The notes below the pieces were generated by a model, which was not told the origin of the DNA, did no database searches, and saw only the letters and a list, made by a program, of their open reading frames with translations. A stretch of 64,000 bases of DNA. Origin: an uncultured Candidatus Saccharibacteria bacterium (GTDB lineage: Bacteria > Patescibacteriota > Minisyncoccia > Minisyncoccales > MHMH01). The translations under genes and the position numbers were made by a program. Shown in pieces: positions 7,472 through 49,053 of this stretch (positions are counted from its first letter, which is position 1; every line of letters begins with the position of its first letter). The DNA lies in contig CAYZXA010000001.1 of NCBI GenBank assembly GCA_964482335.1, positions 24,983-88,982 of the forward strand, given 5' to 3'.

Positions 7472-8326
7472 ATGAAGAAAGCTTTTGTTGTTTTAGTAAT
7501 TTTGTTTGGTTTGAATATTTTAGCTTGGGTAGCAGTTTATGACTTAAGTCAATCTCAGTTGTTGGAGGTTGTTTTTTTTGATGTGGGGCAAGGGGACAGC
7601 ATTTTTATTGCAACTCCTCAAGGACACCAAATTCTAATTGATGGGGGACCAGATGAAACGGTTTTAGAAAATTTGGGCAAAGAGATGCCGTTCTGGGACA
7701 GAACCATTGATCTGATTATTCTTAGTCATCCCGAGCACGATCATATAAGTGGTTTGATCGAGGTGTTAAAGAGATATAAGGTAGAGAATATCTTATGGAC
7801 TGGAGTTTTAAGAGATACTTCTGAATACAGGCAATGGCAGGAATTAATAAAAGAAGAAAGAGCTCGAATAACAATAGCTCGAGCCGGCCAGCAGATTCAA
7901 GGCTCGGGGTCAAATCTTAAGCGCTGGGCTATAGAGGTTTTATTTCCTTTTGAAAGTCTTGAAGGCAAGGAAGTTAAAAATACCAACAATACTTCTGTTG
8001 TTGTTCGTTTGGTCTACGGCGACAACTCCTTTTTATTTACCGGCGATGCTTATAAATCAATAGAAAGACAGCTTTTGGAAACAGCGATTGATGCTGATGT
8101 CCTAAAGGTCGGGCATCATGGCAGTAAGACTTCAAGTGCTCAAGAATTCATTGAGAAAGTTTCTCCAGACATTGCTGTTATTCAATGTGGCAAAGATAAT
8201 CATTATGGGCATCCTTCTCAGGAAACTTTGGAGATTTTAGAAAAATATGGTATAAATATCTTTAGAACCGACTTAGATGGTGATATTAAAATATTATGCA
8301 ATTCCCAGTCTTTAATACTAAAGTAA
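7472..8326 (+). CDS. ComEC/Rec2-related MBL-fold domain protein (membrane anchored, lacks the competence channel domain)
   Basis: N-terminal TM helix, FFDVGQGDS, SHPEHDHISG and LKVGHHGSKTSS motifs of the ComEC C-terminal beta-lactamase-like domain. Confidence 0.7.
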   Translation: MKKAFVVLVILFGLNILAWVAVYDLSQSQLLEVVFFDVGQGDSIFIATPQGHQILIDGGPDETVLENLGKEMPFWDRTIDLIILSHPEHDHISGLIEVLKRYKVENILWTGVLRDTSEYRQWQELIKEERARITIARAGQQIQGSGSNLKRWAIEVLFPFESLEGKEVKNTNNTSVVVRLVYGDNSFLFTGDAYKSIERQLLETAIDADVLKVGHHGSKTSSAQEFIEKVSPDIAVIQCGKDNHYGHPSQETLEILEKYGINIFRTDLDGDIKILCNSQSLILK

Positions 8327-9360
8327 AAGGATTAAAAAAAACCTTTAACTTAAATAATCCCAGAGAAAGAAAGGAGTATTTTGAATTGAAGGCTGGCCAA
8401 GAAATCAAGAAATTAAGAAACTACTTTAAAAGAGGCAATACTTTTATTGCCTATCTCGTGGGTAAGAAGAATTCTGGCAAAGGGACTTATGCTAAGATGT
8501 TTGCTGAAATTGTTGGTCCTCAATACATAGAGCATTTTTCCATTGGCGATATGATCAGGAGGGTTGATGAAGAATTAAAGGATAAAAAGAAGAAGAAAGA
8601 GCTGTTTGTCTTTTTGGAGAAGAACTACCGAGGCAAGTTTTCAATTAAAGAAATACTTTCTCTTCTAGCGAAAAGAAACACTTCAGCTCCTCTATTGCCA
8701 ACTGAATTGATTTTAACTTTAATTGAAAGAGAAATTGCCGAAAAGAAAAAGAAAACTCTCTTTATTGACGGTTTTCCTCGAGACCTAGACCAGATGAATT
8801 TTACCTTGTTTTTCCGTAACTTAATTGGCTACCGGGAAGATGATGATATTTTCATTCTTTTTAATGTTCCAGAGAAAGTTATTGACGAGAGAATGAAATA
8901 TCGCAGAGTTTGTCCTCGCTGCCATACTTCAAGGAATTTGAAATTACTACCAACTTCTAAATTAGGCTACGATCAAAAGAAAAAGGAATTTTACTTACTC
9001 TGCGATAATCCCAACTGCCAAGAAGTAAAAATGCTTCCTAAAGAAGGAGATGAAAAGGGGATTAAATCAATTAGGGCAAGGTTAATGAAAGCTGATCAAT
9101 TAATAAATCAGGCAGCCTCTCTCTACGGCATCCCCAAGGTTTATTTAAAAAATTCAGTCCCTAAAAGTTTAGCTTCCAAATTAGTTGATAACTACGAGCT
9201 TACTCCAGAATATAGTTATAAATGGAATGGCAAAGAAGTAAAGATTATAGAGAAACCTTGGGTATTTCCAGACGATGAAGGTAAACCTTCCTACAGTTTA
9301 CTTGCTGCAGCAGTTGTTCTTTCTTTGATCAAACAAACAACTAAGGTATTGAACCTATAA
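8296..9360 (+). CDS. divergent, extended adenylate-kinase-like NMP kinase paralog
   Basis: P-loop GKKNSGKGTYAKMF, FIDGFPRDLDQ and a Cys4 LID (CPRC...CDNPNC), plus a C-terminal extension of about 100 aa. The start is uncertain. Confidence 0.55.
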   Translation: MQFPVFNTKVKGLKKTFNLNNPRERKEYFELKAGQEIKKLRNYFKRGNTFIAYLVGKKNSGKGTYAKMFAEIVGPQYIEHFSIGDMIRRVDEELKDKKKKKELFVFLEKNYRGKFSIKEILSLLAKRNTSAPLLPTELILTLIEREIAEKKKKTLFIDGFPRDLDQMNFTLFFRNLIGYREDDDIFILFNVPEKVIDERMKYRRVCPRCHTSRNLKLLPTSKLGYDQKKKEFYLLCDNPNCQEVKMLPKEGDEKGIKSIRARLMKADQLINQAASLYGIPKVYLKNSVPKSLASKLVDNYELTPEYSYKWNGKEVKIIEKPWVFPDDEGKPSYSLLAAAVVLSLIKQTTKVLNL

Positions 9361-9365
9361 TTTCC

Positions 9366-9390
9366 TTGACAGTGATTTTTGTGATATAAT
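9366..9390 (+). promoter_or_regulatory. putative promoter with extended -10
   Basis: TTGACA (9366-9371) and TGATATAAT (9382-9390). The spacer is only 13 nt, so the extended -10 probably dominates. Confidence 0.4.
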
Positions 9391-9392
9391 AA

Positions 9393-9566
9393 GAGTAGCC
9401 CCGCTCATTTCTAGCAGATTCTGGGACAAACGTTCTTTTCGGGAGTCCTATATCTTGTAGTGCTTTCCATAGTGACTACATTGCGGACACCCACTTAAAT
9501 CATTTTCCAGAAGAATTCTCTAGAAAAGGCAGGGCTCAAAAAATCCGGCAAGCGCCGGACTTTTTG
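9393..9566 (+). ncRNA. ssrS: candidate 6S-like structured RNA
   Basis: Rod-like fold. Helices: 9397-9404/9529-9536, 9408-9414/9520-9526, 9419-9424/9507-9512. Central bubble 9425-9440 versus 9493-9506. Upper stem 9441-9448/9485-9492 and apical hairpin 9456-9461/9475-9480. It has its own promoter and terminator. Confidence 0.4.
9544..9566. terminator. bidirectional intrinsic terminator
   Basis: TCCGGC-AAGC-GCCGGA hairpin flanked by an A-run upstream and a T-run downstream. It can serve both the plus-strand RNA and the minus-strand rpmB-tRNA-Pro unit. Confidence 0.6.
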
Positions 9567-9573
9567 AATACTT

Positions 9574-9644
9574 TCGGGCTGCTGGGAATTGAACCCAGTT
9601 CGCAGAGCCCCCAGCTCTGCATAATACCAATATACCACAGCCCG
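9574..9644 (-). tRNA. tRNA-Pro (anticodon GGG), no encoded CCA
   Basis: The reverse complement folds as CGGGCTG/CAGCCCG acceptor, anticodon stem CAGAG/CTCTG, loop CTGGGGG and T-arm TGGG-TTCAATT-CCCA. Confidence 0.85.
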
Positions 9645-9645
9645 T

Positions 9646-9834
9646 TTATTTCTTTTTTGTTATTGTTTTGATGCATCTGGCACAGGCTTTGACTCTTTTA
9701 CCAGAAGCTAAAGTTACCCATTGGAGATTTGGGTATTTTCTTTTTTTAATGGTTGGATTGTACTTTCCCCTGAGTTTCTTTAATTTCCAAACCATCTTGC
9801 CTGTTTTTCCGCAGATAGCGCATTGTTTAGCCAT
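9646..9834 (-). CDS. rpmB: 50S ribosomal protein L28 (Zn-binding form)
   Basis: MAKQCAICGKTGKMV...KACARCIK matches L28. Confidence 0.9.
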   Translation of the reverse strand: MAKQCAICGKTGKMVWKLKKLRGKYNPTIKKRKYPNLQWVTLASGKRVKACARCIKTITKKK

Positions 9835-25053: not shown

Positions 25054-25735
25054 GCTATTCATTATTGTTTTAGGACCACCAGGTTCTGGCAAAGGAACCC
25101 AGGCCGAGCTTTTGGCTGAGAAATTTGATTTCTACCACTTAGAAACAAGTGAAATTATTGAGAGAAATTTGGCCAATGCTAAAAAAGACGATTTTGTTCT
25201 GGTCAACAACAAGAAATATTTTTTATTAGACGAGAAAAAAATGAGGGAATCAGGCGAGTTAATGAGCCCTCCTTTGATTGCTTTTTGGGTTAAGGATAAA
25301 ATTAAGGAATTGGCTCAAGAAGGAAAAGGGATTACAACTTCCGGTTCTCCCAGGACGCTCTACGAAGGCAAAGAAGTAGTCCCTGTTTTAAAAAAATTAT
25401 ACGGCATAAAGAATATCAAAGTAATTTTACTTAATTTAAGTGCCAAAGAATCTATTTGGAGAAATTCTCACCGCAGAAGCTGTCGGTTAATGCGGCATCC
25501 TATTTTATACACTAAAGAAACTGCTAAACTGACTAAGTGTCCTATTGATGGTTCAGAATTAATCATCCGCAAGGATGACAATTCAGAGGTTATTAAGATC
25601 AGGTTAAAAGAATATAAAGAAAGAACATTTCCTTTGGTAAAATATTTTAAAGGGGAGGATTTGCAGGTTAAAAAAATAAATGGCAAGCAGTCAGTTGAAA
25701 AAGTATTTAAAGATATTTTAAAAGCTGTCAAATGA
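25040..25735 (+). CDS. adk: adenylate kinase
   Basis: GPPGSGKGTQAELLAEKF P-loop; spc-operon position. Confidence 0.9.
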   Translation: MKRSKLFIIVLGPPGSGKGTQAELLAEKFDFYHLETSEIIERNLANAKKDDFVLVNNKKYFLLDEKKMRESGELMSPPLIAFWVKDKIKELAQEGKGITTSGSPRTLYEGKEVVPVLKKLYGIKNIKVILLNLSAKESIWRNSHRRSCRLMRHPILYTKETAKLTKCPIDGSELIIRKDDNSEVIKIRLKEYKERTFPLVKYFKGEDLQVKKINGKQSVEKVFKDILKAVK

Positions 25736-48780: not shown

Positions 48781-49053
48781 AGCGCCGTGGAGGAGTAGTA
48801 CCTCACCAGTCTCATAAATTTTTGTGACCTAAAATGGTAACATTTTATGGAAAAATTCCCGAAATTGCTGGGAACCCGTAAAAATATTTTATGGCAATCA
48901 GCAGCCAAGCTTCGACATTTTGTCGGAGAAGGTTCAGAGACTATAATGGGAACACCCTTTTATTTAAGGGAGATGGGATAGTCCGTTCCATTTGGAAACA
49001 AATGGCTAACACTAAAGAAGCTGGGGGCCCCCGTGCAATTCGGGGCGGCGCAA
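48781..49053 (+). tRNA. tRNA(CAU) gene interrupted by a group I intron (exons 48781-48815 and 49018-49053)
   Basis: The joined exons fold as a 71-nt cloverleaf. Acceptor AGCGCCG/CGGCGCA, D-arm GAGG-AGTAGTA-CCTC, anticodon arm CCAGT-CTCATAA-GCTGG, variable GGGC, T-arm CCCCG-TGCAATT-CGGGG. Confidence 0.75.
48816..49017 (+). mobile_element. group I intron, IC3-like (tRNA-type, Azoarcus/Anabaena-like core), 202 nt, no ORF
   Basis: Core strings TATGGCAA..GCAGCCAAGCTTCG and GAAGGTTCAGAGACTATAATGGG match remembered tRNA-intron cores. IGS TTGTGA (48822-48827) pairs with TCAT|AA. P2 has a GTAA loop. P7 is GACTAT/ATAGTC. P9 is CCATTTG-GAAA-CAAATGG. The terminal G is at 49017. Confidence 0.8.

Follow-up and report, generated by a model that had tools for sequence, protein, structure and literature searches.

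Genomic context and fold of the RNA

The 64-kb stretch of DNA analysed here, referred to throughout as the window, is from a Candidatus Nealsonbacteria-like member of the CPR/Patescibacteria, judging from the source names of the closest homologues of the neighbouring protein. The gene order around the RNA considered below comprises a metallo-beta-lactamase-fold protein, an adk paralogue (+), the RNA itself, tRNA-Pro (−), rpmB (−), an M50 protease, rpsL, rpsG and fusA. The adk paralogue (8296–9360, +) encodes an adenylate-kinase-like NMP kinase of 354 aa that matches the Pfam families ADK and AAA_17, with an extended N-terminus and a lid of the form CxxC...CxxxxC. Its P-loop region also has a separate match near 25084, possibly the genuine adk. 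On the other side, a convergent gene for tRNA-Pro(GGG) occupies 9574–9644 (−). The preliminary description of this DNA placed the RNA in a 285-bp non-coding gap between the adk paralogue and tRNA-Pro; this value runs as far as rpmB at 9646, the next coding sequence, and the interval between the adk-paralogue stop (9360) and tRNA-Pro (9574) is 213 bp. No open reading frame of 20 aa or more on the + strand overlaps the RNA rod. Elsewhere in the window, a group I intron is located at 48803–49005 (+), where RF00028 matches with 91.8 bits. The sequences flanking this intron (GCGCCGTGGAGGAGTAGTACCT... and ...GGGGCCCCCGTGCAATTCGGGGCGGCGCA) resemble a tRNA gene split in two, in that the halves of an acceptor stem match each other and a T-arm is present, and ARAGORN called no tRNA at the site (48803–49005).

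The RNA extends over 140 nt, from 9397 to 9536 (+), and folds into one long interrupted rod in which each of the helices originally named, together with a bubble of 16 against 14 nt, is recovered (all on the + strand, from the sequence and RNAfold). The closing arm (5′ strand 9397–9424, 3′ strand 9507–9536), which is also supported by covariation, is composed of three helices: P1, AGCCCCGC (9397–9404) paired with GCAGGGCT (9529–9536); P2, TTTCTAG (9408–9414) paired with CTAGAAA (9520–9526); and P3, TTCTGG (9419–9424) paired with CCAGAA (9507–9512), which would be the counterpart of the ‘downstream helix’ of 6S RNA. The central bubble consists of a 16-nt 5′ strand, GACAAACGTTCTTTTC (9425–9440), and a 14-nt 3′ strand, ACTTAAATCATTTT (9493–9506), the latter being the putative counterpart of the ‘−10-like’ region of 6S RNA. 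The apical (‘upstream’) arm (9441–9492) is built from P4, GGGAGTCC (9441–9448) paired with GGACACCC (9485–9492), an internal loop and an apical hairpin (9456–9480) closed by TGTAGT (9456–9461) and ACTACA (9475–9480). This rod is both the minimum-energy and the centroid structure predicted by RNAfold for the window copy, with an energy of −60.7 kcal/mol (z = −6.3), and none of 200 dinucleotide shuffles folds as well. As for any near-palindrome, the reverse strand folds equally well and, therefore, folding alone cannot identify the strand from which the RNA is made.

A conserved gene with a predicted transcription unit of its own

Related loci were fetched by means of the adk paralogue, seven from species-representative genomes and 80 from metagenomes, and a covariance model (CM), R1, was built from six copies of the RNA. 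With this model the RNA is detected at 64 distinct loci, each time on the same strand as the paralogue and with scores of 43–131 bits; matches on the reverse strand, where present, score at most 35 bits. The window copy (9397–9537) scores 107 bits with R1 and 109.5 bits with the family model R2, and is the only copy in the 64-kb window. The RNA lies downstream of the paralogue in 73 of the 80 Nealsonbacteria-type loci with 200 nt or more of sequence downstream, most often starting ∼37–50 nt past the stop codon of the paralogue. Homologues of the paralogue are 61–79% identical in many Nealsonbacteria-type genomes, and the downstream neighbour of the RNA varies between homologous loci. In five loci (L016, L022, L026, L027 and L028), no RNA was found within 1.3–1.5 kb downstream of the paralogue, and a motif search returned only chance matches, inside coding sequences. 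In these five cases the RNA may be encoded elsewhere in the genome or may have been lost.

The signals expected of a separate transcription unit flank the RNA on both sides, as had been proposed. A perfect extended −10 element, TGaTATAAT, is located at 9382–9390 (+), and a −35-type hexamer, TTGACA, at 9366–9371 (+) lies 13 nt upstream of the −10 in the window copy. The end of the −10 element and the first paired base of the RNA are separated by 6 nt in the window, and an offset of 5–6 nt is found in 41 homologous loci. In most of the 64 loci a promoter is similarly present upstream of the RNA, typically in the form TTGACA-N18-TATAAT and often with both hexamers perfect. The shorter distance of 13–14 nt between the two hexamers is common to the window and its closest relatives, L010 and L012, in both of which the TGn of the extended −10 is conserved, compared with 18 nt in most relatives. 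From these sequences, the short spacer of this sub-lineage looks like a small deletion that has been compensated by the extended −10, and the shared TGn lends support to the promoter originally proposed. Downstream, an intrinsic terminator at 9544–9565 (+) is made up of a hairpin, TCCGGCAAGCGCCGGA (9544–9559), followed by the T-run CTTTTT. A hairpin and T-run are found 3′ of the rod in at least 45 of the 64 homologues and, in others, a T-run directly follows a GC-rich P1. Within 9537–9573 the terminator hairpin is flanked by an A-run as well as by the T-run, and it could therefore also end the convergent rpmB–tRNA-Pro transcript (−). The RNA thus belongs to a conserved gene family, predicted to be transcribed independently, and is not a chance feature of the spacer.

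In several relatives the RNA gene has itself been the target of an insertion. A MITE-like element of ∼70–85 nt is inserted inside the 5′ strand of P1, with copies at 2616–2695 in L029, 1075–1154 in L042, 1381–1460 in L062, 2879–2958 in L056 and 1264–1345 in L075, and further copies in L037, L039 and L040; single ends of the element are found at 4039 in L045 and at 595 in L064. The element has the terminal inverted repeats CCCCGTTAGAAAT and ATTTCTAACGGGG and is accompanied by an apparent target-site duplication, GCTCGG or CCCTG. Its insertion shifts the promoter and the original 5′ end of the RNA upstream, and the duplicated target leaves P1 pairable. The window contains no copy of this element.

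Covariation, strand and conserved positions

The pairing of the rod is maintained across the family. In an alignment of 64 sequences, which was fitted to the covariance model, standard pairs make up 87.9% of cells, as against 70.2% when partners are shuffled and 36–54% when partners are slid by one to three columns. Compensatory double changes are present in 32 of the 36 base pairs, and none of 500 shuffles reaches any of the observed measures of pairing or covariation. Six sequences aligned independently of the model with MAFFT and analysed with RNAalifold again give this rod, and covariation is seen in 18 of 39 pairs. When applied to the CM-fitted alignment, RNAalifold recovered only the apical arm because the columns of the closing arm are gappy; support for the closing arm comes instead from the pairing statistics of the 64-sequence alignment and from the independent six-sequence alignment. 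The comparison of homologous spacers that the preliminary description had suggested as a check is, in this way, favourable to the rod. Pairing reaches 71–89% in helices 1–5, all of which show compensatory changes, and 95% in the apical helix, where all eight pairs covary; the GGG/CCC pairs of P4 are formed in 62–64 of the 64 sequences. The alignment also distinguishes the two strands, as it contains 201 G-U cells against 73 A-C cells, and this excess identifies the + strand as the RNA strand.

Conservation is not limited to the helices. The two unpaired strands of the bubble (1.19 and 1.30 bits per column) exceed the stems (1.01 bits) in conservation, and the bubble has the dimensions 16/14 nt in 51 of the 64 members. 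In 57 members the 5′ bubble strand has C as its third base, and the 3′ bubble strand starts with ACTT in 40 members and with ACCT in 18. The family consensus reads ...UUCUGG on the closing side, (G/U)ACAAA(C/A)nUUyUUUnn along the 5′ bubble strand and GGGAGUCU... beyond it; on the return, the apical arm ends in ...GAyWCCC, the 3′ bubble strand is AC(C/U)UGGAAnnUUUU and the closing arm resumes with CCAGAA.... The window copy has GGGAG on the outward strand and CACCC on the return, immediately followed by ACTT, and has AAAT where most relatives have GGAA, such that its 3′ bubble strand, ACUUAAAUCAUUUU, is without the UGGAA found in most relatives.

A further unpaired element is strongly conserved in most members of the family: an asymmetric internal loop, 5′-UGAnAUGA-3′ opposite ∼3 nt, is situated between P4 and the apical hairpin. 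The sub-lineage of the window has UAUAUCU (9449–9455) in place of this loop. To our knowledge, the UGAnAUGA loop has no counterpart in the 6S RNAs that have been described. In view of its fold, covariation and conservation, the spacer almost certainly encodes a genuine structured small RNA.

Probable relationship to 6S RNA

A closing stem, a central bubble and a terminal stem were originally read as the architecture of 6S RNA, the open-promoter mimic. In described 6S RNAs, the arms of the rod are interrupted by small loops and enclose a large central bubble (PMC8876501). The same arrangement of closing arm, large central bubble and apical arm is found here. The conserved core of 6S RNA, consisting of GGG...CCC and a 3′ bubble strand beginning ACCU, is likewise found in the family; the window copy has ACTT at this position. 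With respect to length, for which about 200 nt was taken as the criterion, the rods measure 129–146 nt, compared with 187 consensus positions in RF00013, the Rfam 6S family, and the window RNA would reach ∼170 nt if the terminator hairpin were retained.

The consensus of RF00013 allows a comparison position by position. Its 5′ part reads ...CuGAgCC, followed by a 16-nt bubble strand, gAaaauuuuuauaaua, and then GGGagccc..., and its 3′ part reads ...gggcaCCC, followed by a 13-nt bubble strand, ACCUggaAcagCa, and then GGuUCaAg.... The family motif GGGAG...CACCCAC(C/U)UGGAA and the 16-nt 5′ bubble strand match this consensus at the same structural positions.

Searches with the Rfam models, which had been proposed as a check, give a divided result, with the link to 6S RNA emerging from two homologues and not from the window copy. 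At the gathering cut-off of RF00013 (46.4 bits; Rfam release 15) the family is missed: there is no match at the gathering score in the whole window, none at E ≤ 10 in regions of 361 and 149 nt around the RNA, and no 6S match when 15 homologous loci were searched together against Rfam. When single homologues were searched in a narrow slice, for which the filters are laxer, L067 and L070 were positive and L044, whose 3′ bubble strand starts with ACUU like that of the window, gave no RF00013 match. L067 matches RF00013 with 31.5 bits (E = 3.2e-5) and L070 with 29.6 bits (E = 8.7e-5), these E-values being calibrated on random sequence and not on unrelated rod-shaped RNAs, and in both cases RF00013 is the sole significant family of 4227. 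As both scores are below 46.4 bits, neither RNA is a member of RF00013 by the operational rule of Rfam. Both alignments are global (model positions 1–187) and in register, so that the ends of the RNA fall on the ends of 6S RNA: GGGAG is placed on GGGag, and CACCC followed by ACCUGGA is placed on caCCC followed by ACCUgga, with ∼8 positions deleted in the closing arm and 20–30 in the apical arm. The identity of the window RNA to these two homologues is 83% (L067) and 72% (L070) and, accordingly, its own link to 6S RNA is transitive. In the opposite direction, the family model R2, with filters off, gave no meaningful match to E. coli ssrS, which is unsurprising because the E. coli RNA departs from the GGG/CCC consensus.

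The conserved gene with its covarying rod, the positions shared with the 6S consensus and the RF00013 matches of two homologues all support the earlier 6S-like reading, and the sequence at 9397–9536 (+) is probably a divergent, compact homologue of 6S RNA that would act as an open-promoter mimic. Bacterial SRP RNA was also considered and was rejected, given that Rfam yields no SRP match and that the apical loop and helix are variable in sequence, in contrast to the conserved domain IV with its GNRA tetraloop.

Alternative explanations

The strongest competitor of the 6S reading is that the family constitutes a different, undescribed structured small RNA, which binds some other protein partner through its conserved internal loops and has come to resemble the shape of 6S RNA by convergence. 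Such an origin could accommodate the lack of an above-threshold Rfam match, the failure of R2 to find E. coli 6S RNA, the strongly conserved UGAnAUGA loop of the apical arm and the tight linkage to an NMP-kinase paralogue. However, it does not account for the coincidence of the conserved positions with the 6S consensus, including a 5′ bubble strand of 16 nt in both, as well as the end-to-end alignment of L067 and L070 with RF00013 as their sole significant family, and we regard it as unlikely.

It is also conceivable that the RNA descends from 6S RNA but works unlike the canonical molecule, as a minimal derivative that forms a nucleotide-sensing module together with the kinase, or that is adapted to a CPR-specific form of the polymerase or to another partner. 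Such a derivative could follow from the apical arm, which is probably too short for a −35-like contact, the UGAnAUGA loop, the nearly constant placement directly downstream of a lineage-specific NMP-kinase paralogue and the loss of UGGAA and of the release hairpin in the sub-lineage of the window. We consider a departure of this kind improbable.

A third proposal, that the rod is a cis-acting 3′ element of the adk-paralogue mRNA, serving as a stabiliser or a processing signal, appears very unlikely. It would explain why the RNA is always on the strand of the paralogue and most often begins ∼37–50 nt past its stop codon, and read-through is possible since there is no terminator between the two. 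Against this, the stop codon and the RNA are separated by a near-consensus promoter in most loci, and in several loci the RNA is 240–1128 nt away from the paralogue, or has been split off from it by inserted elements, with the promoter kept. In addition, a role in trans is favoured by the fact that particular unpaired bases are conserved.

Finally, a palindromic mobile or repeat element of the MITE type, or a chance hairpin, which a 140-bp imperfect inverted repeat with a well-folding reverse strand does resemble, and of which a genuine MITE-like example occurs in these genomes, is effectively refuted by the single copy in the window, the fixed syntenic position across species whose neighbour protein is 61–79% identical, the strand asymmetry of G-U over A-C cells, the widespread compensatory changes and the greater conservation of unpaired strands than of stems.

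Proposed mechanism and release

If the RNA is a 6S homologue, a mechanism of action can be proposed by analogy. The RNA would be expressed from its own strong promoter and its transcript ended by the intrinsic terminator, both of which are predicted. The rod would then act as an open-promoter mimic in which upstream DNA is represented by the apical arm and the non-template strand of the −10 region by the 3′ bubble strand (AC(C/U)UGGAA...). By homology with 6S RNA, it is expected to occupy the active-site channel of the RNA polymerase holoenzyme containing the housekeeping sigma factor and, in this way, to sequester the enzyme. The apical arm may be too short for a −35-like contact.

Release would be brought about by a rise in NTPs, upon which the polymerase would copy the 5′ bubble strand, from near the conserved C9427 into the 5′ strand of P3. 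The choice of C9427 as the predicted start of templating depends on an alignment with E. coli, in which product-RNA synthesis starts at U44; this is the third base of the bubble when ssrS is aligned to RF00013, and it aligns with the conserved C of the family. The product RNA predicted for the window is 5′-GUCCCAGAAUCUG, which would be G-initiated, and its predicted start is 5′-GUCCCAGAAUC in the window and 5′-GUACCAGAA in relatives. This product would unzip P3, allowing the RNA to change its fold and dissociate from the enzyme. For about half of the relatives, the expected new fold contains a hairpin of the 3′ bubble strand with the freed strand of P3; in the window copy, GUUCUUUU of the 5′ bubble strand would form a weaker helix with AGAAGAAU.

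Shuffle-tested refolding and simulated binding of the product RNA bear on this last step. The hairpin of the 3′ bubble strand with P3 is better than in shuffled sequences at p ≤ 0.05 in 31 of the 64 members (e.g. UUGGAA-UUUU-UUCCGAG, −8.1 kcal/mol), and a collapse helix of the Bacillus/Aquifex type reaches significance relative to shuffles in 14 (22%). With the product RNA bound in simulation, 26 sequences form the 3′-bubble hairpin, five form the collapse helix and 33 adopt other structures. The window copy has no release hairpin in the shuffle-tested refolding, and its collapse-type helix, GUUCUUUU/AGAAGAAU, has an energy of −5.7 kcal/mol that is not significant (p = 0.10). For the family as a whole, the release elements modelled in this manner are suggestive.

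Significance

6S RNA has been described as present in nearly all bacteria (PMC8414754), and a literature search found no paper reporting one in the CPR/Patescibacteria; the RNA described here is missed by Rfam 15 at its cut-off. Confirmation would mean that ultra-small, host-dependent bacteria retain RNA-based global control of RNA polymerase, and the covariance model built here could then serve to annotate related genomes for this RNA. A 6S RNA that has been minimised naturally, to ∼140 nt with both arms shortened, would also help to define the smallest functional open-promoter mimic.

Comparison with known systems

The RNA shares with E. coli ssrS and the RF00013 family the rod of closing arm, central bubble and apical arm. 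In common with RF00013, it has a 16-nt 5′ bubble strand, GGG/CCC pairs where the bubble meets the apical arm, and a 3′ bubble strand that begins AC(C/U)U(G)GAA and is 14 nt long, against 13 nt in the Rfam consensus. A conserved base also occupies position 3 of the bubble, the position at which the product RNA starts in E. coli 6S RNA. In E. coli, the 3′ bubble strand, A131-CCUUGAACC, forms the ‘−10-like’ region and contributes, together with the 3′ strand of the neighbouring helix, to the release hairpin (PMC8876501); a hairpin between the equivalent strands is possible in about half of the members of the present family. The predicted product RNA of the window would be G-initiated, like that of B. 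subtilis 6S-1 RNA, whose synthesis initiates with GTP (PMC8876501). The ‘central bubble collapse helix’, in which the distal part of the 5′ bubble strand pairs with the 3′ strand of the downstream helix, is the mode of release of 6S-1 and of the Aquifex aeolicus 6S RNA (PMC8876501), and a helix of this type could form in the window copy, although not at a significant level (p = 0.10).

Several features set the family apart. The rod measures 129–146 nt compared with ∼185 nt for RF00013, the closing arm lacking ∼8 nt per strand and the apical arm 20–30 nt; relative to canonical 6S RNA, the shortening of each arm ranges from several base pairs to roughly one helical turn. In vitro, 6S-1 RNAs truncated to short arms remain functional (PMC8876501). 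Next to the bubble, the helix of the closing arm is UCUGG/CCAGA here and GAGCC/GGUUC in RF00013, and the genomic neighbour is an NMP-kinase paralogue, unlike E. coli, where ssrS is followed by the gene for 5-formyl-THF cyclo-ligase (fau/ygfA). The 6S RNA of A. aeolicus, at ∼160 nt, is small like the RNA described here.

At the other end of the size range, Ms1 RNA is ∼300 nt long, and we know of no 6S bubble signature in it. Ms1 is found in Actinobacteria, where it forms a 6S-like rod and binds RNA polymerase, in a lineage for which canonical 6S RNA is reported as not found (PMC9130861). The partner of Ms1 is the core enzyme, whereas the RNA of the present family, at ∼140 nt, carries the bubble signature of 6S RNA.
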